Sequence record: PZ674595.1
Reading direction: 5' to 3' (one strand)
Length of the DNA stretch: 64,000 bases
Source: a phage
Under the pieces are notes generated by a model. It did no database searches. It worked only from the letters and a program-made list of their open reading frames with translations, and was not told where the DNA came from. The position numbers and the translations under genes are program-made. Of the stretch, positions 1,492 through 63,253 are shown piece after piece (positions within the stretch are counted from its first letter, which is position 1; every line of letters starts with the position of its first letter).

Positions 1492-1586
1492 TTAAAACAG
1501 CCTTAATGATAAGTAACTACTTACCATAGTTAATGGTATATTTATATAAGAACTTGAACGCTCATTAGAGAACAAAGGAAAAGCGC

Positions 1587-2822
1587 ATGACTACTACTGC
1601 ACTGCAAAATGATAAAAATCCTTCTGATTACCTTGTTTGCAAGTGGTGCGGCAAATCATTTCACTATTTTAAGTCCCATGTAGCCAATGGTAATTGCGAG
1701 GGCATTCCTGAGTCAGTAAAAGATGCCGATCCTGACACCGTACTGAAAATGTACACAACGCAGTTTCCAGATGAACCAACGCTATCGAAAAAGGCACTTG
1801 ATGCAATTCAAGCTAAACGTGCCGAGCAAAAAAGCGAAATGGCGAAATCTTCTGGCTTGACCAGTAGCCCAGGCTACACAGGCACAGTTGAGTACAAGAC
1901 AGATCTGGTCGCAGCTCACGAACTGCTAAACGTAACGGTGGAAGAACTCGGAACAAAACGTGGGACGCCGCTCATGGTTAGCGTCAACGTCAATACGCCG
2001 TATCCAGAGTTCGTTCCAGAAGTGAAGAAGGGCTACGTATATGGCGACTTCGAACTGATCAAAGATATTTTCATGATGCTTGAACTTGGCATACCTGGCT
2101 ATTTGTGGGGTCATGCAGGAACAGGCAAATCGTCATTGCCTACACAGCTATGTGCTTTGCTCAATCGTCCGTTGATCCGTGCCCAACATACAGCATCAAT
2201 GGAAGAGGCACATGTTACGGGGCAAATTCTGGCGCGTGATGGCTCTACGTATTTCGAGCCTGGCTTGCTTGCGCTCGCAATGAAGCATGGCTGGGTTTAC
2301 CTCGCGGATGAATACGACTTTGCGTTTCCACAAATTCTTGGCGTGTATCAGCCAGTGCTGGAAGGTGAGGCGTTGGTCATCAAAGAGGCAACTCCAGAAT
2401 GGCGTCGCATTACTCCGCATGAACGGTTTGCTTTCATTGGCACTGGCAACACAAACGGTTCTGGTGATGAAACCGGCTTGTACCAGGGTACAAACATCCA
2501 GAACGCCGCGAACTTTTCACGTTTTGGCATCGTTTCGAATGTGAAATACATGAGCAAAGAGGCAGAGATCAACATGTTGATAAATGCCGGCATCGTGGAT
2601 GAATACGCTGAAAAGATGGTTAAGTTTGCCGGTATCGTTCGCGATGGATATGAAGAACACCTTATCAGCCAGCCAATTGGGCCTCGTGAGCTTTTGTTGT
2701 CGGCCAAGATTGGAATGATGCGAGGCGACTTTGTGACAGGTATTGAGCGTTCTTTCATTAACAAACTCCCTTCAGCTTCTGCGCAAGCGGCTCGTGAAGT
2801 TGTTCAAAAAATATTTGGTTAA
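1587..2822 (+). CDS. AAA+ ATPase of MoxR/CobS-like family
   Basis: Walker A GHAGTGKSS, Walker B-like VYLADEYD, N-terminal Cys/His cluster CKWCGKSFHYFKSH; RBS AAAGGAAAAG before ATG; immediately follows the VWA partner. Confidence 0.8.
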   Translation: MTTTALQNDKNPSDYLVCKWCGKSFHYFKSHVANGNCEGIPESVKDADPDTVLKMYTTQFPDEPTLSKKALDAIQAKRAEQKSEMAKSSGLTSSPGYTGTVEYKTDLVAAHELLNVTVEELGTKRGTPLMVSVNVNTPYPEFVPEVKKGYVYGDFELIKDIFMMLELGIPGYLWGHAGTGKSSLPTQLCALLNRPLIRAQHTASMEEAHVTGQILARDGSTYFEPGLLALAMKHGWVYLADEYDFAFPQILGVYQPVLEGEALVIKEATPEWRRITPHERFAFIGTGNTNGSGDETGLYQGTNIQNAANFSRFGIVSNVKYMSKEAEINMLINAGIVDEYAEKMVKFAGIVRDGYEEHLISQPIGPRELLLSAKIGMMRGDFVTGIERSFINKLPSASAQAAREVVQKIFG

Positions 2823-2824
2823 TC

Positions 2825-3028
2825 GTGCGTAAAGGATGTTTCGGCTCTCTTATCGCTGCTTCTGAAACTGGCAAGGCTTGTCTGGGGTGTCCAGACAAGC
2901 CCGATTGTCACCAATCAGCAAAAGAAGTTGCGATTTCGATGTATGGGAAGTTCGTAGGCTTCCCCAATGACAAAATCAAAAAAACCAGAAAGGTAAAAAC
3001 ACATGAAGGCACTGATGGTTCGAACTGA
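2825..3028 (+). CDS. small Cys-rich hypothetical protein (GTG start, overlaps dnaE-like start)
   Basis: 67-aa ORF with CLGCPDKPDC motif; no clear RBS; overlaps next gene out of frame. Confidence 0.25.
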   Translation: MRKGCFGSLIAASETGKACLGCPDKPDCHQSAKEVAISMYGKFVGFPNDKIKKTRKVKTHEGTDGSN

Positions 3029-6000
3029 CTTCTCACTTGGGGAGTCGGCTCTAAAAGCAGAAAACGCGGTGAAGATTGCCAGAGAAGCTGGCTACACCGC
3101 TGTAATTTCAGCAGATAGCATGAATATTGCAAGTGTTATTCCACTACAACGTGCCGCTGGTGACGACATGGCGGTTATTTGTGGTGTGAAACTAAACATT
3201 GTTGATGATCCCACATACGAGCACCGGGCTAAACTTGCTAAAGAATCTATGAGATGTATGGAATCATTAGAGCGGGGACGTAACTACTCGTTTACCGCTC
3301 TAATTAAAAATGAGCAAGGATATCGCGACATCTGCGAACTAATGACGGCGGCCAACACACGAGAACAGTTCTACTTTGTACCGCGTCTCTCGCTCGAACA
3401 GTTGGTTTCTACATATGCCAAAGGCAACATCATCCTGCTTACTTCCGACATCGGTAGCGTGTTCCAACGCAACGATTTTGCAAAAATCATAAGCACACTG
3501 ATTACAGCGGGTGGAAAAGACAACTTCTATAGTGTGGTTTATCCGCACCCTACCCCATTCTACGACCAGATTAACGTCCGGGCGATGAAAGTCGCCAGCG
3601 CATTGAAAATAGAGCCAGTGGCGTTCTATCCCGCTTATTACGAATCGATCGACGATGCAGACATTAAAGACATTGCGCACATGGTTACGAACAACATCAA
3701 AATCGACCAGCCGCATCGTCTGCGTATCCCCCACCAGCGAGATAACGCCGTCAATGGTCGCCGCCATCTCCTTGAGGCGCTTAAAGCCTTCTCCGTTCGC
3801 ATGGATGTGCCGGTAACAGCTGCAATGGCCTCAACAACGCAGGATACCATTATCGATGCCTGCACATGGCGCTGGCATGAATTGCCGCCAGCACTGCCAA
3901 AGATGGCAGACGACGAGCCTGCAACGCTTATGAAACTGGCTGTTGCAGGGCTGCGTAAACGTCTTACCACAAAAGAGTTTGGCTACACACCACCTGCTTC
4001 TGAGAACAGGGTTTATGTTGAGCGGCTAAAGTACGAAATGGACACGCTGACTCGCCTGGGATTCTGTGGTTACTTCCTGATGGTGCGCGATCTGATGAAT
4101 CATAGTCGTGAAACTGGCATTCCCGTTGGGCCTGGTCGTGGTTCCTCTGCCGGTTCTCTGGTGGCGTGGTGCATAGGCATAACCAACGTCGACCCAATCC
4201 GTCACGGTCTTCTGTTTGAGCGTTTCATCAACCCTGAGCGTCTCGACTTGCCAGATGCGGATTTGGACTTCAGCCAGGCACGTCGCCATGAGGTGATCGA
4301 GTATCTGAATGAACGCTACGGCGAAGATTACGTTGCAGGCATTCCGAACTTCACCTACCTGGGCGCAGCCTCTGCACTACGTGACACCGCTCGTATTTAT
4401 GGTGTGGAGTCCGCAGATATGGCGGTATCAAAAGAACTGAAGAACGCTGAGGATGATAGCCTTCCATTGGAAGAACTGCGCGAACAACTGGCAAGTCTCG
4501 ACAAATACGCAACAAAATATCCTGATGCATTCAATGCAGCCTGCAAGTTACAAAGCCTTATGCGTGGCTTTGGTAGACATGCGGCAGGGATGATCGTAGC
4601 AGGTGTTCCTCTGACAGAACGTACACCGGTTGAGCGCCGTGGTGACGCGCGTTGTATCGCATTTGACAAGCGTTACTGCGAGGCTATGGGCCTAATTAAG
4701 CTGGACGTGCTTGGCCTGGCAACTCTCGATTTGCTCGATAGTGCAAAACGCTACATAAAAGAGAACACAGGTGAAGATATCAATCTTGATGCCATTTCTC
4801 TTGAAGATCGCAAGGTGCTGGATGGTTTTGCTGCTGGGTACACTCAAGGTGTTTTCCAGCTTGAATCAGGCCCAATGCGCAAGCTGCTTAAAGATTTAGG
4901 TGGTGGAATTGAGCCAATGAGCTTTAAAACGGTCGTCGCTACAACTGCGCTCTTCCGGCCGGGGCCAATTCAATCAGGCATGTTGGATGACTATGTTTCT
5001 GTCGCCAAAGGCTTTATGACGCCGGAATCATTACACCCCGTTCTTGATGAACTTACCGCGGAAACAAATGGCGTGATTCTCTATCAGGAACAGACGATGA
5101 ACGCGACTCGATTGCTTGCCGGCTTCACAATGGCTGAAGCTGACGCTGTGCGTTCCGCAATCGGTAAGAAGAACATGGAAAAAATGAAGAGCATGGGCGA
5201 GAAGTTCATCGTTCAGGCTCAAGCTGGCTGGATAGACGTTGAGCTGGAAGATGGCACTACACAGCGCATTCACCGTGCGGAACATTTTAAATGCGAAGAC
5301 GGAACTCTGAAAACTGTCGAAGAGGCACTTGAGCACGGCGCAAAACTACCTATAAACGCAGTACGCGTTACAGCGTCACATCCAGGGCTATCAGAGATGA
5401 AAGCGAAGGAGATCTGGACCGCATTTGAGAAAAACGGAGCCTATCAGTTCAATAAATCACACTCCGTTGCTTATTCTTTAATCAGTTATCAGTCTATGTG
5501 GCTAAAGACGCACTACCCTGCTGAGTTCTTCGCAGCTGCGCTCACCATTCTGGGCGAGGATAAGCATCAGGGGCTGGTGAAGGATGCGCTGACCTATGGC
5601 ATTCGCGTATTGCCACCAGACGTTAATGTGTCATCTAACCGAATTGAGATCCGCACACTCGAAGACGGCAGTCAGGCACTGTATGCGCCATTCTCTGCTG
5701 TGAAAGGCTGTTCTGAAAATGGTTGTCAGGCAATTATGCGTGCGCGTGAGAAAGTTGGTGGCAAATTCGAGTCAGTGGCACAATTCGATGAAGCGGTCGA
5801 GAAGCGTGCATGTAACAGTCGTGTACGCGAGTCGCTTCATAAAGTAGGGGCTTTTGCGTCAATTGAGCCAGGCAGTCTGCCAGCAACTGATCCTGAACGA
5901 CTGCGCGACCAGGCTGAGCTGATGGGCAATCTCATCATTGACGCTGTTAAAGCATCACGTCCGTTCGAAATGAATCCTAAGCGTTCTGCCGAAATCAACG

Positions 6001-6521: not shown

Positions 6522-6525
6522 TAAA

Positions 6526-6551
6526 GAAAACCCGCCTGTTGGCGGGTTTAT
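6526..6551. terminator. Rho-independent terminator hairpin, usable on both strands (after dnaE-like; downstream of csp on minus)
   Basis: AAAACCCGCC-TGTT-GGCGGGTTTAT; A-run before and T-run after the stem. Confidence 0.6.
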
Positions 6552-6824
6552 AAAGAATTATGGCGCTTGTTGAGGAAGTCACTCCTCTTACGCACTTTGT
6601 TTTGCCATGCCGGCAGTTAGCTTCTGCCTTTGACTATTCATGCGGCAACCCCGCATTTCGCCACAATGGGCAATTCACTTTTATGGAATAAACTGGCCGT
6701 TGTGTCGATTTAATTAGCATGGCCTTACCATGCTAATTTATTCAACTTGTACAATCCTACAAATCTATCCACTCAGGCTTACACCGTCTTCGTTATTGTA
6801 GAAATGAGGATCATCAGCGTTGAA

Positions 6825-7040
6825 TCAGCTTAGAGCAACGACATTTGCTGCTGCTGGGCCTTTAGCCCCATTCTCGATAGAGAATTCGACCTGCTGGCCT
6901 TCTTCCAAAGTGCGGAAATTATTACTCTGAATTGCCGAAAAATGTACAAAAACATCTTTACTGCCATCAGCAGGAGAAATAAAGCCAAAGCCTTTATCAG
7001 AGTTAAACCATTTTACTAAACCAGTCATTTTATTAGACAT
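6825..7040 (-). CDS. Cold-shock protein, CspA family (closest in my recollection to CspB/G/I)
   Basis: Translation [38 protein letters not shown]... with RNP motifs KGFGFI and VFVHF; ATG at 7040 is internal Met33 of the 103-aa track ORF, preceded by GAAGGT. Confidence 0.9.
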
Positions 7041-7369
7041 AGATATTACCTTCTTAATTTTGTGAGCCACATAGTGCGGCGAGAATTTGATCTGTATAGA
7101 TTGGGACTTACTTAGGCACTTAAGGAGGAGACTCACGAAGAAGGGAAATCAGAAGATAACACTGAACTGAGACTGCTTTACTAAAACTGCTTACATAAGG
7201 TCTGTCTTGCAAACCAACGATGCTATTAACGCATACCCCTTCTTTTCATGCAACCTTTATTTTTCAAAGATAACTAATTTTTGTCACCATTGGTTTAGTA
7301 AACGTTAACGAACCAGACGATGCCAGACACCTTTACAGAGAACAGATGCCCGCCAATTGGCGGGCATCA

Positions 7370-7933: not shown

Positions 7934-7993
7934 AGTTTTCCTTTGAAGATAGTTGGACAGTTTCTGCAAAAGGCGGCTAATGCCGCCTTGAAA

Positions 7994-8218: not shown

Positions 8219-8228
8219 TCGCCTCCGA

Positions 8229-8905: not shown

Positions 8906-9022
8906 TTTTTGATAGATAATAAGTAAGTACTGATCTATCATTTAACAGCTCGAAAGAGCCACGAATGAACGAAAGCCCAACGCGCATAGCGCCATCGGCC
9001 AAATCACAACAAGGAGAAACAC

Positions 9023-11322: not shown

Positions 11323-11324
11323 TC

Positions 11325-12398
11325 ATGGCAAAAGGAAAATCCGCACTGGCACTTGCTCTGAAAAAGAAAATCGGTAGCAACGACGAAATTCAGAAAGTAA
11401 CTCATTGGATTGATACAGGCTTTCCACCGTTAAACAAAGCTATTTCTGGTCGTTACGATGGCGGCTTCCCATGTGGTCGTATCGTCGAAGTATTCGGTCC
11501 TCCAAGTGCAGGGAAAACGTTCCTTGCAACAGCAGCGATGATCTCCGCTCAAAAACAAGATGGTCTGGCGGTATTCCTCGATCATGAAAACAGTTTTGAC
11601 GTTGGCCTGGCTGTCGCCAATGGCCTGAACGCAGATGAGGATGACGGTCAGTGGGTATACAAGCAGCCAGATACCTTCGAAGACTCTGTAGAGTTGATCG
11701 GCACAATACTTAAATTGGTTCGTGATGAAGAGCTTATCCCCGAATCAGCACCAATCTGTATCGTGGCTGACTCTCTTGCGTCTATGGTTCCGAACTCCAA
11801 AGCCGAGAAGTTCGAAAAGATGGCTGAAGGCACTGCCAAAGACAAAGATCAGCTAAACATGAACGACAATACGGCACTGGCTCGTGCGACGAGTGCGAAC
11901 TTCCCTACTCTGGCTTTGTGGGCACGCAAATACAACGCCTGCATCATCTTCTTGAATCAGGTTCGCACAAAAATCGGTGTAATGTTTGGCGACCCTACTA
12001 CGTCGCCAGGTGGAGATTCACCGAAGTTCTACGCTTCTGTACGTATCCGTCTTGGTGCATCGGTGATGAAGGATGGTAAAGAGAAGATCGGCCAGGACGT
12101 AGGCGCAGAATGCATCAAAAACAAAGTTGCACCACCGTATGGCAAATGCACCTGGAAATTCTACTTCGATCCTACTCGTGGCCTCGACGTTATCGAATCG
12201 CTCGTCGAGTACATGCTGGAAGAAGGATACCTGCCAAAGAACGCCAGCGGGCGAGTTGAAATTGGTGACAAGAAATACACCAAATCGCAGATCGTCGAGA
12301 TGTATCGGGAGAAGCCACTGGCTGAAATCATTGCGGCTTTGCAGGCAATCGACGACCGAAGAGCAAAAGACAACCCCACCGAGTCAGTAGAAGAGTAA
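11325..12398 (+). CDS. RecA-superfamily recombinase (UvsX/RecA-like)
   Basis: Walker A GPPSAGKTFLA, RecA-like core; RBS AAGGAG. Confidence 0.85.
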   Translation: MAKGKSALALALKKKIGSNDEIQKVTHWIDTGFPPLNKAISGRYDGGFPCGRIVEVFGPPSAGKTFLATAAMISAQKQDGLAVFLDHENSFDVGLAVANGLNADEDDGQWVYKQPDTFEDSVELIGTILKLVRDEELIPESAPICIVADSLASMVPNSKAEKFEKMAEGTAKDKDQLNMNDNTALARATSANFPTLALWARKYNACIIFLNQVRTKIGVMFGDPTTSPGGDSPKFYASVRIRLGASVMKDGKEKIGQDVGAECIKNKVAPPYGKCTWKFYFDPTRGLDVIESLVEYMLEEGYLPKNASGRVEIGDKKYTKSQIVEMYREKPLAEIIAALQAIDDRRAKDNPTESVEE

Positions 12399-12403
12399 AC
12401 ACA

Positions 12404-12428
12404 AGGCGTCCACAGGACGCCTTTTTTA
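12404..12428 (+). terminator. Rho-independent terminator
   Basis: AGGCGTCC-ACAG-GACGCCT followed by TTTTTT. Confidence 0.75.
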
Positions 12429-12490
12429 TCTCTTGAAAATATATAAGTACTTACTTATTATTTTCGCATAACAACCACATAGGAAAACAC

Positions 12491-13567: not shown

Positions 13568-13616
13568 TCGCAATTATCTTATTAAGAAAACAATTTGTTT
13601 AAAAGGATAAGAAAAC

Positions 13617-14042: not shown

Positions 14043-14097
14043 TCGCCTATTCATAACTAACAAAATAAGTAAACACTAACCACAAAAGGAAAAACAC

Positions 14098-14373: not shown

Positions 14374-14412
14374 GTTTACAGTAAAATTTATATAAGTTAG
14401 TATCTACCTATC

Positions 14413-18069: not shown

Positions 18070-18323
18070 CCCTCCAGATCGTATATTGGCGTAGATAGAA
18101 TCTACGCCCCCTCAAAATAGCTCTCATAGCGTTCTACAGTGATCCTGTCTTATTTTTAGTCATACAGACAAGCAAAGTTGCGCCACGATAAATAGGTATA
18201 TACTTACTTATAAATTTTGTATATTAAGGCGCTCGTTTCATTCCTAACATACCGTTATGCATAGTTGTTTACCTCCTCATTGCTCTTAGAATTTGTATCA
18301 AAATAACCACAAAGGAAAAACAC

Positions 18324-22867: not shown

Positions 22868-22940
22868 TTTCATTGATAGGTAAGTGCTTATCTATTAACA
22901 TGGGCCACTATATTTAGTGGCCCTCTTTATTTGGTGATAC

Positions 22941-27452: not shown

Positions 27453-27519
27453 TTGTAGGTAGTTATCTATCTGTGTATATTGCGTTGGCGCGTTAAATTT
27501 CTGAAACAACTATTCGTTT

Positions 27520-27548
27520 TTGGTGGCCTATGGCCACCATTTTTTTAT
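27520..27548 (+). terminator. Rho-independent terminator
   Basis: TGGTGGCC-TA-TGGCCACCA followed by TTTTTTT. Confidence 0.7.
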
Positions 27549-27596
27549 CTGTCTGGTCTTGTTCTCTCAATAAATGTAAACTCACGCAATGAATAA

Positions 27597-28727
27597 GTGG
27601 TTACTTATCTTTGTGAGGTTTTTGTGTCACTCCTTTTGAATCGTGAGCATACGAACGGTCAGGTAACAAACGCATCGTATGCAAAAGTTATTGAGACGGT
27701 GCTTAAAAGCGGCGTGCAGGCTGATGATCGCACAGGCACTGGTACTTTAAGCACCTGCTACGTTCCCTCTTACTACATGCTTACTGGTGGGACTGTGCCG
27801 CTTATTTCTGGAAAGGCGGTAAATCTTAAGCCACTACTTGTCGAACTTGAGTGGTATCTGAAAGGCACGGGCAACATCCAATTTCTCAAGGATAACGGCG
27901 TTAAGATTTGGGATGCATGGGCCGATGAGAATGGCGATTTGGGGCCGGTTTACGGTAAGCAGTGGCGTCGATGGGAAGATACCCGCATCGTGAGCCATAG
28001 TGAATATCTGAGCAAGATCGATACTTTCCGTGAACGCGGGTACAAAGTCGAGGGATACCTGGGTATCAGTGAAGATCGCGTAGTGCTGTCCCGTGAAATC
28101 GATCAGCTACAGCGTATTGTCGATACACTGCGCACGAACCCTACCGATCGTCGCATCATGCTTAACGCATGGAACGTAGGCGAGCTTGAGGATATGAAAC
28201 TGCCACCTTGCCACTTTGTCTTCTCTTTGTGGAGTCGTGAGCTGGATTTTGAAACCCGTTTAACGATGGCAACTGACATTGGTCTTCAACACAGTCGCCT
28301 CGGTTACGAGTCTATCTACACCAAGATGCTATACGATCTGGAGATGGACGGCAGTGTTACTGAAGCTGAACTGGATGAACTTGGAATCCCCAAACGCATC
28401 CTCAACTCCTGCCTCGTACAGCGTAGCGTAGACACTTTTGTTGGTATGCCATTCAATATTGCTGGCTATGGCATTCTCACTCATTTTCTCGCGAAGATTA
28501 CGGGTCACATGGCCGGTGCATTTGTGCATTTTGGCTTTGACGTGCATTTGTACAACAACCACATGGAAGGTGTGTGTGAGCTAATGAAACGACAGGCTCC
28601 AGAGCATTCAGATCCGGTCGTTATTTTCCCTCATGAATGGTCAGAGTTGGATGATTTCAAATGGGACGAGGTTTTAATTCTTGGCTATGACCCTCTATCG
28701 TGGATCAAGGTTCCAGTGGCGGTGTGA
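27597..28727 (+). CDS. thyA: thymidylate synthase with internal insertion; start codon uncertain
   Basis: DRTGTGTLS, WADENGDLGPVYGKQWRRW, PPCH and SCLVQRSVDTFVGMPFNIAGYGILTHFLA motifs; alternative GTG start at 27624 behind GAGG. Confidence 0.85.
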   Translation: MVTYLCEVFVSLLLNREHTNGQVTNASYAKVIETVLKSGVQADDRTGTGTLSTCYVPSYYMLTGGTVPLISGKAVNLKPLLVELEWYLKGTGNIQFLKDNGVKIWDAWADENGDLGPVYGKQWRRWEDTRIVSHSEYLSKIDTFRERGYKVEGYLGISEDRVVLSREIDQLQRIVDTLRTNPTDRRIMLNAWNVGELEDMKLPPCHFVFSLWSRELDFETRLTMATDIGLQHSRLGYESIYTKMLYDLEMDGSVTEAELDELGIPKRILNSCLVQRSVDTFVGMPFNIAGYGILTHFLAKITGHMAGAFVHFGFDVHLYNNHMEGVCELMKRQAPEHSDPVVIFPHEWSELDDFKWDEVLILGYDPLSWIKVPVAV

Positions 28728-30749: not shown

Positions 30750-31307
30750 ATGACAACGATTGTTGCAGGCATCGATATCGAGTCTACGGGACTGGATTTC
30801 CTTGCTGGTCATAAAATTATTGAAATCGCAATTACCCGCTATGAACTGGAGACACAGAGACATATTGATAGTCTGGAGATGCGTTTTAACCCTCGCAGAA
30901 ACATAGATCCGAAAGCTCAAGCCGTTCATGGCATTTCATTGGAACAGCTCGCAGCTGAACCTTTGTTGTCAAATCATGCCAGCGAAATTGGCGCTTATAT
31001 GGGGGCATGTAGTGTGTGGGTTGCTCATAACGGCGAAGCATTTGATATACCATTTATTCGACACGAGTTTTCAGGGTATGGAGTAAGACTGCCAGAAGTT
31101 CCTGTTATAGATACTATGTTATCGGGATTGTGGGCCACAGAAGACGGTAAACGTCCCCGCCTTGAAGAGTTGGCCTTCTCTCTTGGCTTTATATACGATC
31201 ATGCCAAAGCACATAGTGCCTTATATGACACAAACTTAATGATGCAATGCTTCTTTAAGGCACGTAATAAGTACGGATTTTTTAAATTACCCTCTGAAAT
31301 TGTGTAA
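30750..31307 (+). CDS. dnaQ: DnaQ-like 3'-5' proofreading exonuclease (DEDDh)
   Basis: Exo I GIDIESTG, HKIIEIA, VHGI, Exo II HNGEAFDIPF, Exo III HSALYD; RBS AAGGAG. Confidence 0.8.
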   Translation: MTTIVAGIDIESTGLDFLAGHKIIEIAITRYELETQRHIDSLEMRFNPRRNIDPKAQAVHGISLEQLAAEPLLSNHASEIGAYMGACSVWVAHNGEAFDIPFIRHEFSGYGVRLPEVPVIDTMLSGLWATEDGKRPRLEELAFSLGFIYDHAKAHSALYDTNLMMQCFFKARNKYGFFKLPSEIV

Positions 31308-32275: not shown

Positions 32276-32458
32276 CGTTCCCCTACTGAAAATAAAGCCC
32301 ATAGAGAGCTTTATAGTGCTGGGCAAGCCAATCACATACCCAGCACCACAAAAACGCGCCAGAGAGCTTCTCGTTTGCATTTCTGGCGCGTTTTATTTGA
32401 TTGCCAGACATAAAATCAAATGCAAAAATAGGTATATACTTACCTATCGAGAAAGAAG

Positions 32459-33073: not shown

Positions 33074-33132
33074 AGCCTGCTTCTGTATATATAAATAACT
33101 ACATATTAATTATTAATATACGGAAGCAGGCT
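33074..33132. repeat. 59-bp inverted-repeat element (19-bp arms), copy 1 of 2
   Basis: AGCCTGCTTCTGTATATAT...ATATATACGGAAGCAGGCT; second copy at 63193-63253 shares an identical right arm. Confidence 0.6.
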
Positions 33133-33468: not shown

Positions 33469-33479
33469 TAGATAAGTAC

Positions 33480-34000
33480 AAACTATTCATAAAGTGAATT
33501 GTAAGTGCTAAGATCTGATAGTTTCCAGTCGTAGACTGGAGACTCGACCTGATGGGTGGGGGTAAGCGTCACTGGCGTCAGGTTTAAAAAAGCTCACTAC
33601 CAGCGTAGAACCGGTGCCGTTTAGGTGTCGGGGAAGGGGGAACCAAAGTGAGCGGAGACAAGGGTCACTTTATGATTGTCGAGTCTGGGGTGTTTCGAGA
33701 GGTTGAATCCAGTACTCCCCTTCATAAAGTGTGGGAAGATCTCGGTTCTGGGGTGCTGTCATCCATAACTTCCCAAGTCTAAGCTGGCAGTAGACTTAGG
33801 CCATAACTTTTCAGGTTATGAAACGACCAGGTTGGTGAGGGATTTTTATACTCACCTCCCTGGGAGAGTATTACCTGAAAAGACAACCTCTCACTTCGTT
33901 CGAGGTGAACTTCACTCACTTCGTTCGTTCAGTTCAGGTTTATAAAAACCTGTTCTGGGAAGTAATTTGTTTATTTTAATAATTATTAACACGCACGCGT
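33480..34000. other. ORF-free structured region (candidate ncRNA or cis-acting site)
   Basis: About 520 bp without any ORF on either strand in a densely packed genome; several hairpins (CCAGTC-GTAGA-CTGG, GGTGAGGGATTTTTATACTCACC, AGGTTTATAAAAACCT); ends with alternating Pu/Py palindrome CACGCACGCGTGTGCGCACGCGCG. Confidence 0.4.
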
Positions 34001-34054: not shown

Positions 34055-34648
34055 ATGACGACGAAGACACCAGCCCGATCGCAAGAAAAAACTCGCAAAA
34101 AAGCCAAAAACAAAAATTCTCCCCGCACCAATTCCACAACGCCTGTCGTAGAGTTCAATCCCCAGCTTAAAACCGTGAAAATCTTCAGTGATGGCTCTTG
34201 CCTTAAAAATCCGGGTGGCCCGGGCGGTTACGGTATAGTTCTCCAGTATCGTGGTGAGGAACGCGAGTTCTCAGATGGTTTTCATAGCACCACCAATAAC
34301 CGCATGGAGATGATGGGGGCACTTATTGGGCTGGAGCGTTTGAAATATCCATGCAACGTTATTTTGCACTCTGATAGCCAGTATCTGAAAAACGGCATGA
34401 CACAGTGGATGAAATGGTGGAAACGCAATGGATGGGTGACTTCTGACAAAAAACCGGTAAAGAATGTTGATCTGTGGAAGCGTCTGGATGAGGCTGCAAG
34501 TCGACATAATGTTCGCTGGAAGTGGGTTAAAGGTCACGCCGGGCATCGTGAAAATGAAATATGTGATCGACTCGCGAAGATCGCAGCTTTTTCCGCAGCA
34601 GATATGCCTCACAAGAAAGATATTGGTTTTGTTTACAACAAGAAGTAA
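34055..34648 (+). CDS. rnhA: ribonuclease HI with basic N-terminal extension
   Basis: [74 protein letters not shown] as in E. coli RNase HI; ATG at 34055 behind CAGGAG. Confidence 0.85.
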
Positions 34649-34793
34649 GTAAGTGTTTACCTATCATTTTAAATCATGTATCTTATCAGCGTCAGGATGA
34701 CAATGTGTCGGTAAGACACAGTTCCAGGATGGAACGAGAAAGGCGGCTGGCAATCGCCAGCCGCAACTCTTTCTGACACTGGATGGAGTCCAC

Positions 34794-39624: not shown

Positions 39625-39684
39625 TAGGTAAATACTTACTTAATTTTTGTAAGAATGTAGTTACTAAACGATAAGAGAAAACAC

Positions 39685-42596: not shown

Positions 42597-42866
42597 TATA
42601 TGTTGCATAGAGTTTTATGGAAAAGCGTTATTGTCGGCGCGATACTGGCTATATCTGGGTGTGCAATGGTGCAATACAACGACGGTGAAAAGGTAAGCAT
42701 ACAGTCAGATGGTTGGTATGGTCTGGATAGCCTGCAAAAAACCGCAGATAAAGCCTGTCAGCAATATGGGAAGTCTAAAGCAGTATATCAGCATAGCGCG
42801 AACGCTAACCCTAATCTTGCGCCCGGTTCGGGTGTTCAGAATACCATCTGGAAATGTGAGCCTTAA
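42594..42866 (+). CDS. small lipoprotein
   Basis: Signal peptide with lipobox ISGC; start could be ATG 42594 or 42600. Confidence 0.45.
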
Positions 42867-43557: not shown

Positions 43558-43577
43558 TACTGTATGAATAAACAGTA
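43558..43577 (+). promoter_or_regulatory. LexA (SOS) box upstream of umuD'-like gene
   Basis: TACTGTATGAATAAACAGTA fits CTGT-N8-ACAG consensus, 19 bp before the ATG. Confidence 0.8.
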
Positions 43578-43595: not shown

Positions 43596-43985
43596 ATGGG
43601 CTTCCCTTCTCCTGCGGCGGATTATGCAGAGAGCCGTATTTCTCTTGATCAGCAACTAATCAGACATCCTTCAGCGACCTACTTCATGCGGGCGGCAGAC
43701 AGCCATCACCGTGAGGGAATATTGCAAGGTGCTTTGCTGGTGGTTGATTCCTCACTTACCCCGGTTGATGGTTCTCTGCTTGTATGCGCTCTGGATGGGG
43801 AATATCGCGTAAAAAGATACCGGAAGTATCCACGTCAGCATCTGGAGGATTTAAGAACCGGTAAGAAGGAAGAATTGCCAAAGGATGACGATGGATGCAC
43901 GGGCAGCAATGCCGTGTTTGGTGTGATCACTCACATTATCAACGACGCAAGAAGTGGCGAGTTTGATGATTGTCCCGTGATGTAG
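43596..43985 (+). CDS. humD: UmuD'-like protein lacking the N-terminal cleavable tail (P1 HumD-like)
   Basis: MGFPSPAADYAESRISLDQQLIRHPSATYFMRA aligns with UmuD residues after the Cys-Gly cleavage site; S24 peptidase-like C-terminus; RBS GAGG. Confidence 0.8.
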   Translation: MGFPSPAADYAESRISLDQQLIRHPSATYFMRAADSHHREGILQGALLVVDSSLTPVDGSLLVCALDGEYRVKRYRKYPRQHLEDLRTGKKEELPKDDDGCTGSNAVFGVITHIINDARSGEFDDCPVM

Positions 43986-51477: not shown

Positions 51478-51603
51478 TAATGTGCAAGTGGTAATTAGTC
51501 GACCGTACGACAGCCCCGCCATCCTTACGGGGCTTTTTTGTATTGTAAGTACATACTTACGATCATAGAATAGAAAAATAACCAATACACTACGGAGAGT
51601 GAA

Positions 51604-54689: not shown

Positions 54690-55340
54690 TTACGCTTTAA
54701 AAGCATCAGCCAGATAGTTATAAAAATCATTTTTAACGAAGCGATATTGCTGAGTACCAGCTTTCGCGCTCCCAGCTCCTTTGACTTTTTCAACAAGTCC
54801 GAGACGTTCGCAAAGATTGATCAACTGGTTGGCTTGAGTATAGCCAGCGTCCAATTTAATTTCGTTGGCTTTTTTCGCTTCATTCATTAAATCGAAAACA
54901 GCGCCATTAGTGAACGTGTCGATCTCGTCGTTAATCATATCGATTAAAGCAAATACACGAGATCCTGACATATCAGCGACGGAATAAACGCATTTACCAG
55001 ATTTAATTGATTTGACCAGATAAACCAGTTTTTCCAGAGAGTAACTATTAGCCATTGCATCACGGAAAAATACTTCTGGCGCTTGTTTGCTTGCTTTGAT
55101 CGCATAGTAGAAAACAGAGCATAATTTTTCGTCTTCCACAGCGTTTACGACGTTGTTGATGAAGTAAGCAAGTTTAGTGGTCGCAGCTTGCATATTTGCT
55201 TTGTCTGCTTTAGTGTGCGTACCATTTTTATAATGTTCGTTATATGTTTGAGTTGCCAGATCTGCTTTTTCGCGCAGTTCATCGGATACAATGGAAGCAG
55301 CTTCAACGATGGATTTTTTAGAAATGATAACGTTAGCCAT
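54690..55340 (-). CDS. hypothetical protein (AT-rich block)
   Basis: ATG at 55340 (MANVIISKK...) behind AAGGA; track ORF starts at 55415. Confidence 0.45.
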   Translation of the reverse strand: MANVIISKKSIVEAASIVSDELREKADLATQTYNEHYKNGTHTKADKANMQAATTKLAYFINNVVNAVEDEKLCSVFYYAIKASKQAPEVFFRDAMANSYSLEKLVYLVKSIKSGKCVYSVADMSGSRVFALIDMINDEIDTFTNGAVFDLMNEAKKANEIKLDAGYTQANQLINLCERLGLVEKVKGAGSAKAGTQQYRFVKNDFYNYLADAFKA

Positions 55341-55634
55341 GATAATATCCTTACGAAAAATTAAAATGAATTTATTTTTTACTGTCGTTAGCCAGCTCGC
55401 TTTCGACGAGTTCAATTATCGATACGTGAAAAAAGATTGCAAGTGTTTTTTTTAAATTTTTTGCAGGGGTGAAAGTCCTAGAAATAAAAGAGAGAGCGTC
55501 GAAGGTGTTCCCTAAATAAATAATCAATTCAGGCTTTTAACCTTATATATTTATACAGAGTGGCATTGAAAGAGTTTTAAATGAATGGCATGTAAAATAA
55601 TAACCGGACTTAGCCGGTTATTACCCTTATAGAT

Positions 55635-56156
55635 TTAAAATGGAAGGATTCGTTCAACCCAATCGAAGAAAACAAGTATTTTTCTGCCGTCTTCTAACTT
55701 AAGAGTGACCTGACAAGCATCAACGCCTCTTGACACCCCTTCTATTTCACGACCGTCTGCCATGTAGACCCTTATAGATTGGTCGTTTTGATAAGCCTTG
55801 CGACATATCGCAAAAAAGTCACGGCGTGATGGCTGATTGTCAACATAGTCTGGATGTATTGTTAGCCTACCTTTGAACTCGCGAGCAATGCCATCGATTA
55901 CACCTGATTCAATTGTGCTAATGCGCTCAAGTGGGAGTCTTATACGATTTTCTTTATCATATGGAAGCGGGCATAAATCTAGCTTATTGCGGGAAGGCAT
56001 TGTCCCCTGAACGTACATGCAAAACACCTGACCGTCTTCAAGCGTGACTCTTACAGGAATGTTGTTCTTCCGCCAGAACATAAGTATGTTTTCAGCATGT
56101 TCGTAGTCTCGCGGCCAGACTTCAGCCGGTATGCCGTAGGTGATGTCTTTAACCAT
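55635..56156 (-). CDS. hypothetical protein with internal sequence duplication (AT-rich block)
   Basis: 173 aa; two similar segments (VRVTLEDGQVFCMYVQG and IRVYMADGREIEG...VTLKLEDGRKILVFF). Confidence 0.45.
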   Translation of the reverse strand: MVKDITYGIPAEVWPRDYEHAENILMFWRKNNIPVRVTLEDGQVFCMYVQGTMPSRNKLDLCPLPYDKENRIRLPLERISTIESGVIDGIAREFKGRLTIHPDYVDNQPSRRDFFAICRKAYQNDQSIRVYMADGREIEGVSRGVDACQVTLKLEDGRKILVFFDWVERILPF

Positions 56157-56258
56157 AGTCTACCTTTTTAAGTCTTTTTTGGTCATTATATACATCTCTA
56201 TGATGCGTAGACAGACTAACCGTACATTCCACCAAAAATTGATTATGGAATAAGTTTC

Positions 56259-57059
56259 ATGAAGAATGGGGTGAATAAAAAATACTCATTAGCATTGTTA
56301 ATAGCGGCTTTACTATTAACAGGTTGTGATTCTGATGAAGAGCGAGCCATAAATCTAGTTGAAAAGGATATTCGCTCTACACTGCTAGATCCTGATGCTG
56401 GTCGGTTCACGAATATGCGAGCTATTCAGTTAGGTGAAAATAGCTATTCATATATGGTATGTGGAGAGGTGAATGGCAAAAACGTCTTGAACGCCTATAC
56501 AGGTGCGACCGCATTCAATGCACACATCTTTGATGTTCGTGAACGTAACCCGATTGTATTCGTTACAATGGATAAAAGTACCAACTCGGCAAGAGAACGA
56601 TTACGTTTTGAACGCCAAAATCTAGCATGTAAAGAAAATGGTGTGAAACTTTATCTGGAAAACGAATCTAAAATCAGGAAGGAAAAAGAGAAAATAGATG
56701 ATTTAAAAAAAACTCCATTAGGTCAGGCTGTGTTTGATGCTGCAAGTGATTCGACATATGTGAGTAGAGAGTTGGGCGAATCGAGAGGTGTTAGTGAAGT
56801 GTATGCAAGAGAAAATGATAAATATGCTCTTGTTAGCGTCACCAATTATGACACTCCTGACTTTTACAAATTTAGGAAAAAAGACAACGGTGAATTAGAA
56901 CCTGTTAGAGGGCTGTCTTACACCGGCTATCCATTCGCAGTTGCGCTGTGCCATTCTGAACAAACAGATTATGACAAATGCATAACAGAAGAAGAAATCA
57001 GGTTGCTTCGAGACGAAAAGAATAAGCTCGACGATTTTGTCGTACCACCAGAAGAATAA
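56259..57059 (+). CDS. lipoprotein of unknown function (AT-rich block)
   Basis: Signal peptide with lipobox LLTGC; 266 aa; Lys/Glu-rich middle. Confidence 0.5.
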   Translation: MKNGVNKKYSLALLIAALLLTGCDSDEERAINLVEKDIRSTLLDPDAGRFTNMRAIQLGENSYSYMVCGEVNGKNVLNAYTGATAFNAHIFDVRERNPIVFVTMDKSTNSARERLRFERQNLACKENGVKLYLENESKIRKEKEKIDDLKKTPLGQAVFDAASDSTYVSRELGESRGVSEVYARENDKYALVSVTNYDTPDFYKFRKKDNGELEPVRGLSYTGYPFAVALCHSEQTDYDKCITEEEIRLLRDEKNKLDDFVVPPEE

Positions 57060-57444
57060 CATATACAAAATATTTAATTGCTGTAAAATTTAATCGTTCA
57101 GACATAGGGAAAGCCCGACGCCCTCGACAAATCTTTTTGGTATCGTCGAGGGCGTGTTTCAGATATGCATCCTATTGAACTCTTCAGATTTATAGGTAGA
57201 TAGCGTTAATTGGCGTTTTTGTTCTTCTCTTTTTTGCTAATTTCATCACATGCAATATCATCTACTATATTTCTTAGGTCACACGTTTTTATAAATTGTC
57301 GCATATATCCTCCGAATTTCTTCGGAGGCGAAGCCTACAAATATCATTCAGCCTATCAAGATCTTTTTTCAGCCGAAGGTATATACATTCAAAAATGTGA
57401 TGAGTGTCACATGCAGGTGCTCTCATACACCTGCATGTAGACTA

Positions 57445-58010: not shown

Positions 58011-58076
58011 TGATGTGCTCCTTTCTAACAAGTGAGCACATCATAGAATTAGTAGATAGGGGGTAAATATGAAATG

Positions 58077-58355
58077 TTACGGCAACCTGCTCAGTATTTC
58101 CTCTAGATCTTTTTTTGTCATATTGGAGTTCTCATAGATGCGCATGATTTTCTCACGCGTCTTAGCGGAAACCCCAACGGCAGATGTGACTTTGTCAAAT
58201 TCAGCCATAGTCATCGTCTCCAGAATGGCATTGATAACTTCAGCCTTAGACATCTTGATTTTTTTCTCTTTGAGTTTTATTTGAAATTTTCCAAGTTTTT
58301 CATTGGCCTTATCAGACAATGCCACTTGGCAATAAGTTGTTTTCTTTTCGCTCAT
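58077..58355 (-). CDS. small protein downstream of helicase (possible UvsW.1-like)
   Basis: 92-aa Lys-rich ORF; start 2 nt after helicase stop. Confidence 0.35.
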   Translation of the reverse strand: MSEKKTTYCQVALSDKANEKLGKFQIKLKEKKIKMSKAEVINAILETMTMAEFDKVTSAVGVSAKTREKIMRIYENSNMTKKDLEEILSRLP

Positions 58356-58357
58356 AA

Positions 58358-59917: not shown

Positions 59918-59999
59918 AAACCTCTTTCCTTAGTGCCTTTTGTATGTTATTTGGCTATTATAATAAGTAAGTGATTACTTAGTGGATTGTAGCAATAAA

Positions 60000-60680: not shown

Positions 60681-61348
60681 TGACCAAAAAGTTTGAAATC
60701 GTATATCGCGACCCGGCAGATCTTATTCCCTATGAGATGAATGCCAAAAAGCATGATGAACAGCAGATCCGAGATCTAGCCGCAGCCATTAAAAAGCGCG
60801 GATTTGACCAGCCAATTACGGTCGATAAGAACGACGTAATTATTACTGGCCACGGCCGCCGTGAGGCTGCAATTTTTGCTGGACTTGAGCGCGTACCGGT
60901 TATTGTTCGCGATGATCTCAGTGATGACGAGGTTCGTGCGAAGCGCCTTGAAGATAACCGACTTGCCAGCATTGATTACGATGCAATTAAGCTACAGAAA
61001 GAGCTTGAGTCGCTTGTTCTGGACGATATCGAGGTTTTCGGCTTTGAAGAGCGTGAGTTGAATGTTCTCGTTGGCAGCATGACAGAAGAAATGGACACCG
61101 ACTCGCTAGTTATCGATCTTGGCGAAGAAACTAAACGACAGAAGGATGAACACACCGAGATCAGTCGTGAAGTTGCAGCGGAAGAAGTACGTGTTGTCGA
61201 CGTATTGGGCTTTAAAACGCTTCCTGCTGGCTCTGCCATTGTTGTTGGTGATTTGCTTGCCCACATGGAAGAAATGACGGGAGAAAGCGGGGTAGACGCA
61301 TTTGTGGCATATGCGGAGAAGATCTCTTCCGGGGAGATGGCTGCATGA
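60680..61348 (+). CDS. ParB N-terminal-domain protein 2 (paralogue)
   Basis: IITGHGRREAA motif; ATG overlaps upstream stop (TAATG); acidic C-terminus. Confidence 0.6.
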   Translation: MTKKFEIVYRDPADLIPYEMNAKKHDEQQIRDLAAAIKKRGFDQPITVDKNDVIITGHGRREAAIFAGLERVPVIVRDDLSDDEVRAKRLEDNRLASIDYDAIKLQKELESLVLDDIEVFGFEERELNVLVGSMTEEMDTDSLVIDLGEETKRQKDEHTEISREVAAEEVRVVDVLGFKTLPAGSAIVVGDLLAHMEEMTGESGVDAFVAYAEKISSGEMAA

Positions 61349-62010
61349 ACAAATACATCATCAACGTATCGTTTCAGACACGCGTAAATAAAACCACGCG
61401 CACGTTGGAAATCGCTGAGTCGTTCGGGCTTGGCCTGGACGAAAAAGAGTGGACGCTTTACGACAATCTGGAGCTGGAAGTGAAGCAGGGCGATGTGGTG
61501 TACATCACCGGCCAATCCGGTTCCGGCAAATCCGTTGTGCTGCGCGAGTTGCAACGACAGATGAAGGATGAAGGGCTGTCTGTAGCCTCCATCGATGATT
61601 TTACCTTCGATAATGAGGTTAACGTCATCGATCAGTTGGGCAAAACGACCAGCGATGCGCTTGGGTTGTTATCTATGGCTGGTCTGAACGATGCATATCT
61701 GTTTGTTCGCAAGCCTTCTGAAATGTCAGACGGTCAGAAATATCGTCTCAAGATTGCCAAACTGATTGAGTCAGGCGCTAAAGTGTGGGCTGCTGACGAG
61801 TTCGGTGCTGTTCTAGACCGTGTAACCGCTCAGGTTGTGGCATCTAACCTCCAGCGTGCCGCTCGAAAGGTTGGTGCGACGGTAATGGTGGCGACGACTC
61901 ACGAAGACCTGAAGAACGCGCTGCGCCCGGATATGCAGATCACCAAGCACTACAAAGAACGCGTGAAGGTGGAATATCACAATGGTAGTCATGATGAGGT
62001 TCATTTATGA
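61345..62010 (+). CDS. stand-alone ABC-type ATPase (nucleotide-binding domain only)
   Basis: Walker A GQSGSGKS, signature-like SDGQKYRL, Walker B VWAADEFGAVLD, H-loop ATTHED; ATGA overlap with upstream gene. Confidence 0.6.
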   Translation: MNKYIINVSFQTRVNKTTRTLEIAESFGLGLDEKEWTLYDNLELEVKQGDVVYITGQSGSGKSVVLRELQRQMKDEGLSVASIDDFTFDNEVNVIDQLGKTTSDALGLLSMAGLNDAYLFVRKPSEMSDGQKYRLKIAKLIESGAKVWAADEFGAVLDRVTAQVVASNLQRAARKVGATVMVATTHEDLKNALRPDMQITKHYKERVKVEYHNGSHDEVHL

Positions 62011-62897
62011 CGGACATCATCATTAAACGCTACCGCCCTGAAGAGTTTCCGCGTCATCTGGACTTTCTGGAGCGAATGACTGTCACAAAGGGAACTGTAG
62101 AGGACTGGCACGCTCTTAAGTCGCTTCACTACAAAACAGACGGCAAACCTTTCGCGCCAACTTACTATCGCTGCGAACTTGATGACCGTCTGGTGGGCGT
62201 CGTGGTTATGGCTTACCCGAAACTACTGCTGGCACCTCGCCACCGCATGTTTCCTAAGTTGAAACCAACCACTAATACCACCGTGGCTAACCAGTACTGG
62301 GGTCGGTACGTGAATAACAACTTTGCGGTGATCAGTCGCTCAGTTGTGGATACTCAGTATCGTGGCGTAGGCGTCTCTTATCGAATGATTAACCTGGTTA
62401 GCAGGATGCATGACCGGCCAATCATTGAGATCCAGTCCTCGATGAGCAAATACAATCCCTTCGCCATGAAAGCAGGGTTTAAGTTCATCCGCCCTGAGCG
62501 ACCGAAGAGCTATGAAAGTGCACTGCGTGTATTCCAGCGCCATTTCCGTTCCGACCCGGGTGATAACGAGGCGATCGTCAAAGAGTTGTTCGCAATGAGC
62601 GAGTCTCGTCGTCGCCGTGCACTGCGTGATCTGGTGGCGGACTACCACAAGAACAGTTCCCTGGCAAAAGCTGGGCGGAATCGTGGCACGACGATTCAGG
62701 ACATTGCCGACAGTCTGGTGGACGAGGCCAGCATTGTGAAGCTGCTCAAGGACATTCACAACCTGAGCTTTACGTCTCCGTTGTATGGTGTGTACCGAAA
62801 CCCTGACTTTGGCCGTCGACTGCCTGACACGCTGCCACTGCTGGCATTCGACAAACAACCTTTGGATAAACCGTTAGAAATTGCTTTACCGGCATAA
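62007..62897 (+). CDS. GNAT-like acyltransferase-fold protein with C-terminal extension
   Basis: Motif-A-like VDTQYRGVGVSYRMI preceded by hydrophobic strand LVGVVVMAY; ATGA overlap with ATPase gene. Confidence 0.5.
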   Translation: MTDIIIKRYRPEEFPRHLDFLERMTVTKGTVEDWHALKSLHYKTDGKPFAPTYYRCELDDRLVGVVVMAYPKLLLAPRHRMFPKLKPTTNTTVANQYWGRYVNNNFAVISRSVVDTQYRGVGVSYRMINLVSRMHDRPIIEIQSSMSKYNPFAMKAGFKFIRPERPKSYESALRVFQRHFRSDPGDNEAIVKELFAMSESRRRRALRDLVADYHKNSSLAKAGRNRGTTIQDIADSLVDEASIVKLLKDIHNLSFTSPLYGVYRNPDFGRRLPDTLPLLAFDKQPLDKPLEIALPA

Positions 62898-62906
62898 GGA
62901 TTTGCC

Positions 62907-63173
62907 ATGACGTTAACCGATAAACAAAAGGACATCATCAAAACGCTCAATCTCGGTTATGAGCGAGGTCATCTACTTGACCTGGACGAATTGCTTGAAG
63001 TTTTGCCGTACAAGACAACCAAGCAAAGTATCCAGTTCTCAATTCGCGCTCTGATAAAAAAGGGGCTGGTGGAGAAAGGGCATACGCGCCAACGCAGTGA
63101 CAATCGCTATCACCGCCGAACTCTTGGGTTAACCACTTTAGGTCGAGCCAAAGCGAAGTTACTGGTGATGTAA
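62907..63173 (+). CDS. small putative winged-helix DNA-binding protein
   Basis: 88-aa basic ORF 10 nt after the GNAT-like gene; RBS AAGGA. Confidence 0.4.
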   Translation: MTLTDKQKDIIKTLNLGYERGHLLDLDELLEVLPYKTTKQSIQFSIRALIKKGLVEKGHTRQRSDNRYHRRTLGLTTLGRAKAKLLVM

Positions 63174-63192
63174 TCGGTCTGGGAGCTTATTT

Positions 63193-63253
63193 AAAGACCT
63201 GCATCTGTATATATAAATAATAAGTAACTTATTAAATATATACGGAAGCAGGC
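63193..63253. repeat. copy 2 of the conserved inverted-repeat element
   Basis: Right arm ATATACGGAAGCAGGCT identical to copy at 33074-33132; left arm diverged; loop carries AATAAGTAACTTATT palindrome. Confidence 0.55.

Follow-up and report, generated by a model that had tools for sequence, protein, structure and literature searches.

A conserved 18 bp palindrome dispersed through an SSU5-like phage-plasmid: candidate operators of a plasmid-prophage repressor

A 64,000 nucleotide stretch of phage DNA (sequence record PZ674595.1, here called the window) carries in its intergenic gaps a family of AT-rich 18 bp palindromes, and this family is real and functional. The palindromes probably represent dispersed operators of a dimeric helix-turn-helix (HTH) repressor of a plasmid-prophage, like the C1 operators of phage P1 or the stoperators of mycobacteriophage L5, and a probability of about 0.58 is given to this reading. 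The repressor is most likely the XRE-type protein represented by CYRAN_45 of the close relative Cyrano, which would bind the palindromes and thereby repress. Each copy would lie on, or just 3′ of, the promoter of a lytic-cycle gene; in the plasmid-prophage state bound repressor would block RNA polymerase at ∼25 promoters together, and all would be freed jointly once repressor activity was lost, as might happen on DNA damage. A weaker copy upstream of the repressor gene would provide autoregulation.

Megablast comparison with queries of 20–40 kb showed that the window is 98.6–98.7% identical over its full length to Escherichia phage Cyrano and to CMS-2020a, Cyrano being the pLF82 phage-plasmid of E. 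coli LF82, a member of the SSU5 group. Salmonella phage SSU5 and phage-plasmids of Klebsiella were ∼78% identical to the window. The first base corresponds approximately to Cyrano 43,755, within a cobT-like gene, and the stretch contains genes for replication, recombination and nucleotide metabolism, with the small terminase gene at its far end; 84% is coding and 16% intergenic. An SSU5-like portal gene was found in 966 plasmids of PLSDB, ∼800 of them enterobacterial, pHCM2- and pMT1-type plasmids included. SSU5-like phage-plasmids are known to carry resistance genes (PMC9600943).

The palindrome was defined by a mismatch search for TAGGTAAGTA, in which plus and minus strand matches paired up at an offset of 8 bp. 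The consensus is TArGTAAGTACTTACyTA, i.e. TA(G/A)GTAAGTACTTAC(C/T)TA, composed of two 7 bp half-sites, TArGTAA and TTACyTA, with 4 bp between them and AT-rich sequence on both sides. Sites were scored with an iterated, symmetrised weight matrix, and those scoring 19 or more were called strong. Ten copies were strong (1510, 8920, 12440, 14393, 18193, 22877, 32429, 34646, 39625 and 59964), two were moderate (27590 and 51542) and ∼5 were weak (14066, 33469, 39650, 27452 and 179). The 18-mer at up to three mismatches gave seven matches against 0.02 expected, a number reached in 0 of 100 shuffles. The matrix exceeded 9 bits at 28 window positions, compared with 2.2 in dinucleotide shuffles (maximum 6), although this excess is inflated because the matrix was trained on those same sites. 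Twenty of the 21 non-overlapping matrix matches were intergenic (binomial p ∼3e-15), and a weak match at 7097, inside a cspA thermoregulator region, probably arose by chance.

The first-pass annotation of this DNA had described such a family in at least 13 intergenic regions, and copies were found at, or a few bases from, nearly every coordinate it listed, with 12 good sites in 12 gaps and the weak ones besides. Its site at ∼63216 does not belong to the family, as this is the AT-rich loop of a separate ∼57 bp inverted repeat; a matrix match at 33092 was rejected as the loop of the same type of repeat. The proposal of a regulon distinct from the genes with the AAACAA motif agrees with the finding that the 18 bp palindromes and the AAACAAnTTGTTT family sit in separate gaps. 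No description of the palindrome was found in literature searches with the motif string or on SSU5 or pHCM2 regulation.

Scans of the complete genomes of Cyrano, SSU5 and the Klebsiella element pJN2-26 revealed ∼25 sites in each (∼24, 23 and 25, respectively, with a score above 16). These lie in orthologous gaps, which include the terL–portal gap, the portal 3′ end, the gap after the capsid gene, and gaps at tail genes and holin. Conservation in close relatives, on which the first-pass annotation had made its reading depend, was thus found, the palindromes being kept at orthologous gaps of Cyrano, SSU5, pJN2-26 and Klebsiella pKSB1_9A_3 while the flanks diverge. The form in pKSB1_9A_3 (portal 72% identical) is TAAGTAAG-n-A-tTTACTTA, at the same places, and Acinetobacter pAYP-A2 (portal 52% identical) has 32 copies of TTAGTAAGCGCTTACTAA, in which the GTAAG-NN-CTTAC core is retained. 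Pararhizobium plasmid p5 (portal 52%, 57% G+C) has 41 copies of a different 20 bp AT-rich palindrome, GTCAATCAATATTGATTGAC, and these occupy the same kinds of gaps, including the order palindrome-then-terminator after the capsid gene. In the 50 kb read of nickie, a virulent Pseudomonas phage with the genes in the same order and a portal of 50% identity, no shared palindrome was found; the gaps there contain plain −10-like sequences, often next to gap-specific inverted repeats.

A phage sigma factor was considered as an explanation of the motif and rejected. A sigma-70-family factor is encoded, together with a small gene, between cobS/MoxR and dnaE in the Acinetobacter (L017:18800-19465) and Pararhizobium (L020:9365-10000) elements; the enterobacterial elements have no homologue, therefore such a factor cannot explain the motif. 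The corresponding enterobacterial gap (window 2823–3002) holds only a ∼70 amino acid remnant of the small gene neighbouring the sigma factor, which itself appears to have been lost in the enterobacterial lineage.

A logo was built from 66 sites of three genomes and reads TA(G/A)GTAA, a 4 bp centre that varies in more distant relatives, and TTAC(C/T)TA, with AT-rich and symmetric flanks (a-w-r-A on the left, T-y-w-t on the right). The half-sites deviate from the consensus independently: positions 3 and 16 (Fisher p = 0.45) were unpaired in 26 of the 66 sites, and positions 7 and 12 in 23. Independent half-site variation, symmetric flanks and weak RNA folding together suggest a dimeric protein that reads double-stranded DNA, and the pattern points to the site of such a protein and not to an RNA hairpin. 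It is highly improbable that the sites act as hairpins in the RNA, whether to process or stabilise the transcript or to control translation of the cistron that follows, with an FljA-like protein as a possible ligand. Start codons do lie near sites, the variable centre is loop-like, folding at 22877 (z = −3.4) and 32429 (z = −4.2) is better than in shuffles, and the window encodes an FljA-family post-transcriptional repressor (55635–56156). However, compensatory changes are lacking, pairs 3/16 and 7/12 being broken in 35–40% of sites, and base identity is conserved in both halves; the folds are weak (−2 to −8 kcal/mol), the fully conserved site at 8920 is unfolded (z = 0.14), Rfam gave no match at the sites, and the FljA-like gene is absent from the motif-bearing Acinetobacter element. 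The FljA-like protein (minus strand) gave a full-length match to PF03614, ‘Repressor of phase-1 flagellin’ (E = 5e-81). SSU5 and the Klebsiella relatives have it too, and it may target the flagellin of the host as a lysogenic-conversion function.

Promoter-like sequences accompany the palindromes in a strand-specific manner. The best sigma70-like promoter near a site scored 8.35 bits on the coding (plus) strand and 5.47 bits on the opposite strand (81 sites, four genomes; Wilcoxon p = 4e-10), and in a consensus scan of 8–28 kb five of eight plus strand promoter-like matches fell on palindromes, compared with one on the minus strand. Three window promoters, at 12433, 22873 and 51543, enclose the palindrome in a 17 bp spacer and are near consensus at both the −35 and the −10; their sequences, TTGAAA-N17-TATTAT, TTGATA-N17-TAACAT and TTGTAA-N17-TAGAAT respectively, are exactly as the first-pass annotation had described them. 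A four-lineage alignment of the nrdA region showed conservation of the −35, the palindrome, the −10 (TTGATA-N17-TAACAT or TACTAT) and a leader hairpin, while the upstream DNA has diverged. Situated at 22902–22923, with the nrdA promoter on one side and the nrdA start on the other, the hairpin (GGGCCACTATATTTAGTGGCCC, followed by a T-run) is common to the four lineages and is possibly an attenuator or a leader structure. The order terminator-then-palindrome was found at 12403, 27521 and ∼51500.

The register of the −10 differs by site, starting at palindrome position −4, 17, 20–21 or 27–34; the best −10 began at −4 in 13 sites, at 17 in 16, at 20 in nine and at 34 in seven, the rest being elsewhere. 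Varying registers over the core promoter suggest a repressor that acts sterically, as an activator in contact with RNA polymerase requires a single register. The contrary proposal is that these are activator-dependent lytic promoters, at which a phage activator (Lpa- or T4 MotA-like) sits at approximately −20 to −30, replaces the −35 and turns on all lytic genes; this is unlikely. Most sites are without a −35 consensus, as such promoters would be, and TAnnnT begins at position 17 in about half of them, but this element is no commoner than its own mirror image. The −10-like flank, TATcAT, has its mirror image across the palindrome (61% of sites have T at position 22 and 58% have A at −4), and the spread of −10 registers over more than 30 bp is incompatible with a fixed geometry, the spacing in P1 being invariant. 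An offset scan of the Pararhizobium sites likewise gave no fixed −10. Several near-consensus −35/−10 pairs at 17 bp enclose the palindrome, and promoters of this kind need no activator; other sites coincide with or follow the predicted start (59964), or come too near the Shine-Dalgarno sequence. Activation would agree with the conservation of the motif over very distant lineages, as is often seen for promoter motifs, with the retention of near-consensus sites by SSU5, a virulent isolate without the HTH gene, and with the transcript steps up under stress at some palindrome gaps. The activator candidate CYRAN_123 has, by eye, a syntenic counterpart in the motif-less phage nickie, and no Lpa homologue is present. 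Where the first-pass annotation had spoken of operator or activator sites overlapping promoters, the overlap with plus strand promoters stands, and operators fit better than activator sites.

The inner core AAGT|ACTT does resemble the −22 box of P1, AAGTgACTT, which speaks for an activator. The 11 annotated late promoters, Lpa and C1 were extracted from the P1 record (NC_005856) for comparison. All 11 late promoters have a 9 bp box (consensus AAGTGACTT) followed at exactly 4 bp by TAnAAT. The sites studied here share with them an AAGT..ACTT core, a −10-like hexamer just 3′ of it, the usual lack of a −35 and a location before many operons, but are 18 bp palindromes with variable registers and a mirrored flank. 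No homologue of P1 Lpa (gp10) was found by tblastn in the window, Cyrano, SSU5 or pJN2-26 (best E 0.94). The window sites precede SSB, nrdA, thyX, sbcD, methylase and parB-like genes and are not confined to late operons, and in Cyrano portal, tail and holin genes are also downstream. Identity with P1-type late promoters, the analogy drawn in the first-pass annotation, was therefore rejected on geometry, on gene classes that span replication, nucleotide metabolism and structure, and on the missing Lpa homologue. The C1 system resembles the operator arrangement proposed here in having a plasmid-prophage master repressor with operators scattered genome-wide, which overlap sigma70 promoters in varying registers and are located before replication, recombination and morphogenesis genes. 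The C1 operators are asymmetric 17-mers, whereas the present sites are symmetric and tblastn gave no C1 homologue (E above 6); most P1 late genes, moreover, have Lpa-dependent promoters of a separate class, whereas structural-gene gaps here carry the same palindrome as the rest.

The candidate repressor CYRAN_45 is a 128 amino acid XRE-type HTH protein, the gene for which adjoins the integrase gene and is divergent from the cobT–dnaE operon. Homologues were found in all five palindrome-bearing lineages (Cyrano, pJN2-26, pKSB1_9A_3, Acinetobacter and Pararhizobium), with 56% identity in pJN2-26, 38% over the HTH in Acinetobacter and a phmmer E of 1e-12 between the Pararhizobium protein and the pJN2-26 homologue. 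By tblastn the gene is in ∼865 plasmids, compared with ∼966 with the portal gene, and the per-genus counts agree for the enterobacterial genera; the exception is Acinetobacter, with 27 plasmids against 145, a shortfall that is probably due to divergence. The 50 kb read of nickie, syntenic position included, contained neither a homologue nor the motif. Every one of the five lineages has a copy of its own version of the motif upstream of the HTH gene, at 42604–42621 in Cyrano, 90500 in pJN2-26, 61273 and 61304 in pKSB1_9A_3, 73437 and 73531 in Acinetobacter, and 94596 in Pararhizobium; the Cyrano copy is the sole perfect GTAAGNNCTTAC in that genome (108 kb). Among the five family members there were matches to Pfam HTH_3, HTH_19 and HTH_31. 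The best PDB match of the family profile was weak and covered the HTH only (‘Immunity repressor protein’, E = 6e-4); the dimeric restriction-modification controller proteins C.BclI and C.AhdI were also matched, while a search of solved structures with the single CYRAN_45 sequence found nothing.

Other potential binders were considered and rejected. The Acinetobacter element carries the motif yet no FljA-like protein (PF03614), and nickie is motif-less yet encodes ParB-like proteins. CYRAN_123 (window 62907–63173), a winged-helix-like protein, is the one further small DNA-binding candidate that all lineages share; it was rejected on its syntenic counterpart in nickie, which was recognised by eye and for which tblastn found no match.

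Expression in LF82 lysogens was taken from published RNA-seq (table S1 of PMC9928086). The HTH gene CYRAN_45 reached an expression value of 96, ∼10-fold the background of 9.8, and the genes 3′ of palindromes were near background, CYRAN_34 excepted. After 6 h in macrophages some palindrome gaps showed 6- to 12-fold steps up, among them +3.6 log2 from CYRAN_55 to CYRAN_56 (the gap orthologous to window 12440), +3.65 log2 from CYRAN_59 to CYRAN_60 (orthologous to 14393) and +2.5 log2 at a tail-gene gap with a palindrome. An apparent drop across palindrome gaps in one condition (p = 0.0035) disappeared after control for gap size and upstream expression. These data are compatible with repressible promoters but are no proof of them. 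A perfect LexA box, TACTGTATGAATAAACAGTA, was noted at 43558–43577, 18 nucleotides 5′ of a UmuD-like gene (43596–43985); expression of the Cyrano orthologue is seen in lysogens and increases strongly in macrophages (same table of PMC9928086).

Several observations weigh against dispersed operators of the CYRAN_45 protein. The CYRAN_45-type gene lies outside the window, ∼1.2 kb upstream of its first base; a motif copy near the HTH gene would be equally expected if another regulator controlled that gene; and conservation of a motif across genera is unusual for immunity specificity. SSU5 is without the integrase–HTH segment, yet has 23 high-quality sites; it was isolated as a virulent phage (PMC5427195), and a precedent is lytic phage D29, which has lost its repressor and kept L5-type stoperators (PMC5712189). 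The logo has no −35 consensus at any fixed distance and many sites have only weak promoter-like sequence. With upstream expression controlled for, the steps at palindrome gaps were no different from those at other gaps of at least 40 nucleotides, in data near the detection floor. Sites 14393, 32429 and 27590 are only 2–16 nucleotides from start codons, as is the site at the terL–portal junction in relatives, and a conserved site follows the capsid gene but precedes its terminator; such sites would need a promoter further upstream or a role as roadblocks.

These last positions, at very short late-operon gaps and before the capsid-gene terminator, would suit a protein site with no part in promoter control, such as an elongation roadblock or silencer, or a site for a ParB-like or nucleoid-organising protein or a replication or packaging factor. 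Two ParB-like genes adjoin site 59964, and ∼25–40 sites per genome recall the L5 stoperators (PMC5712189). We regard such a role as improbable, as the palindrome-less nickie also has the ParB-like genes together with the entire adjacent operon, the sites carry a plus strand-specific promoter signal, and no specific blocking signature was seen in the RNA-seq, the data of which are near the detection floor.

The operator reading has a close parallel in mycobacteriophage L5 and Cluster A, in which the repressor gp71 acts on an operator and ∼24 stoperators (PMC5712189, PMC9283540, PMC6550527). Both systems have two dozen or more short sites genome-wide, mostly in short intergenic gaps and with late regions included; one copy lies at a key early promoter, the consensus shifts between sub-lineages, and sites are conserved in a lytic relative without the repressor (D29 for L5, SSU5 here). 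L5 sites, however, are asymmetric 13 bp sequences that bind a monomer and point in the direction of transcription, whereas the 18–26 bp palindromes imply a dimer; an elongation block has been demonstrated in L5 and is no more than a possibility here; and the present elements are plasmid-prophages of Gram-negative hosts. Streptomyces phage phiC31 is also said, in work attributed to Ingham et al. in 1994 and Wilson et al. in 1995, to have a ∼17 bp palindromic site in the control region of its repressor gene, and reportedly many highly conserved intergenic copies of this inverted repeat genome-wide, as with the palindromes here; its host, phage type and repressor family are unrelated to those of the SSU5-like elements.

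A wider proposal is that a symmetric, stoperator-like silencing network is ancestral to the SSU5 supercluster of Enterobacteriaceae, Acinetobacter and Rhizobiaceae, and that the ∼800 enterobacterial plasmids form one cross-repressing immunity group. The enterobacterial members examined share one operator sequence, which suggests the single group, and the proposal as a whole is tentative and rather doubtful. If it were true, the repressor of one element would silence incoming relatives, while repressor-less members of the SSU5 type would stay sensitive. Among plasmid-prophages in clinical Klebsiella, E. coli, Enterobacter, Salmonella and Yersinia, SSU5-like elements rank with the most common, and literature searches found nothing published on how lysogeny is maintained in SSU5-like phage-plasmids. 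The analysis supplies the sequence of the proposed operator, the positions of ∼25 gaps per genome that would be under its control and a named candidate repressor, which make the lysogeny switch directly testable, and cross-immunity is predicted between elements that share the motif. The model would explain SSU5 as a repressor-deletion derivative, parallel to D29 for L5. The different palindrome of Pararhizobium and the absence of one in the part of nickie that was read offer a comparative system for specificity change in many-site regulons.

The individual sites are located as follows. Site TAAGTAACTACTTACCAT (1510–1527, score 19.7) lies in the gap between the cobT-like and cobS/MoxR-like genes, 59 nucleotides 5′ of the ATG at 1587, with orthologues at SSU5 45125, pJN2-26 93369 and pKSB1_9A_3 63878. 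Site TAAGTAAGTACTGATCTA (8920–8937) is 5′ of the gp32-like SSB gene, within the promoter-like sequence TAGATA-N17-TATCAT (8913–8941, plus strand). This 18-mer is identical in Cyrano, SSU5 (52176) and pJN2-26 (99982), which suggests an extra constraint at the putative SSB promoter; its right half is asymmetric (CTGATCTA) and includes a GATC Dam site. The promoter at 12433–12461 (plus strand, 10 of 12 matches to consensus) has its palindrome at 12440–12457 (score 23.0) and an intrinsic terminator immediately 5′ (12403–12423). Site TAAGTTAGTATCTACCTA (14393–14410), identical in SSU5 at 58075, is 2 nucleotides 5′ of the annotated ATG (14413) of the CYRAN_60 orthologue, and TAGGTATATACTTACTTA (18193–18210, score 22.7) is 5′ of an SbcD-like gene (18324), with orthologues at SSU5 63081, pJN2-26 344 and pKSB1_9A_3 78250. 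The palindrome of the nrdA promoter (22873–22901, plus strand) overlies the end of the −35 and the spacer (22877–22894).

Site TGAATAAGTGGTTACTTA (27590–27607) lies 16 nucleotides 5′ of the thyX start and is preceded by a terminator (27521–27539); its orthologues are at SSU5 72512, pJN2-26 9790 and pKSB1_9A_3 87800, and a weak, shortened palindrome of 14 bp is nearby at 27456–27469. Site TAGGTATATACTTACCTA (32429–32446, score 22.6) is 12 nucleotides 5′ of the ATG of an adenine methyltransferase gene (32459), with orthologues at SSU5 77652, pJN2-26 14622 and pKSB1_9A_3 93108, and TAAGTAAGTGTTTACCTA (34646–34663, score 22.7) overlaps the RNase H stop codon, 130 nucleotides before the next gene, with orthologues at SSU5 79905, pJN2-26 16843 and pKSB1_9A_3 95306. 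The top-scoring copy, TAGGTAAATACTTACTTA (39625–39642, score 24.9), for which an alignment was made, is right after the stop of a DUF4942 gene; a conserved extended −10-like sequence, TGTAAGAAT, lies 7 nucleotides 3′ and a weak second copy beside it at 39650–39667. The promoter-like sequence at 51543–51571 (plus strand) holds a variant palindrome (51542–51559) with its right half shifted by 2 bp, the orthologue at pJN2-26 28032 having standard half-site spacing; a terminator-like hairpin with a T-run is immediately 5′. Site TAAGTAAGTGATTACTTA (59964–59981, score 21.6) is in the divergent gap between uvsW (minus strand) and the ParB-like operon (plus strand), with orthologues at pJN2-26 34780, pKSB1_9A_3 1880, Acinetobacter 14851 and Pararhizobium 48991, and would cover the transcription start because a TATAAT hexamer ends at its first base. 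Three weak copies have stronger or perfect counterparts in relatives: TAAGTAAACACTAACCAC (14066–14083; SSU5 57747, score 21.2), TAGATAAGTACAAACTAT (33469–33486, right after the CYRAN_80 orthologue; SSU5 78710, a perfect core) and the intragenic TAGATAATCACAAATCTA in the cobT-like gene (179–196; SSU5 43662 and pJN2-26 91933).

The AAACAAnTTGTTT palindrome family gave 20 window matches at up to two mismatches against 6.6 expected, with sites at 13588, 25319, 35552, 36281, 47399, 47450, 51142, 63291, 63316 and others, in gaps without the 18 bp palindrome and two of them just 5′ of terS. Enterobacterial relatives have ∼18–20 copies each and the Acinetobacter element essentially none. The ∼57 bp inverted repeat, CCTGCnTCTGTATATA...TATATACGGAAGCAGG, has the form (G)CCTGCnTCTGTATATA, AT-rich loop, TATATAC(G/A)GAAGCAGG(C), and is present three times per genome (window 33076–33132 and 63198–63254; Cyrano 31157–31212): after the ParA operon, after the adenine methylase gene, and between the small winged-helix-like gene and terS. 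Possible roles are a bidirectional terminator, a centromere or a packaging-related site. Rfam placed a cspA thermoregulator (RF01766, 185.7 bits) at 6800–7218 on the minus strand, with a cold-shock-protein-like C-terminus just 3′; what lies between dnaE and hicB here seems to be a csp gene, 5′ untranslated region included, that was left unannotated. The RecA-like gene of the window (11325–12398) encodes 357 amino acids, compared with 779 in Cyrano (55065–57404), which suggests an insertion in Cyrano, possibly an intein or homing element, that is absent from the window.

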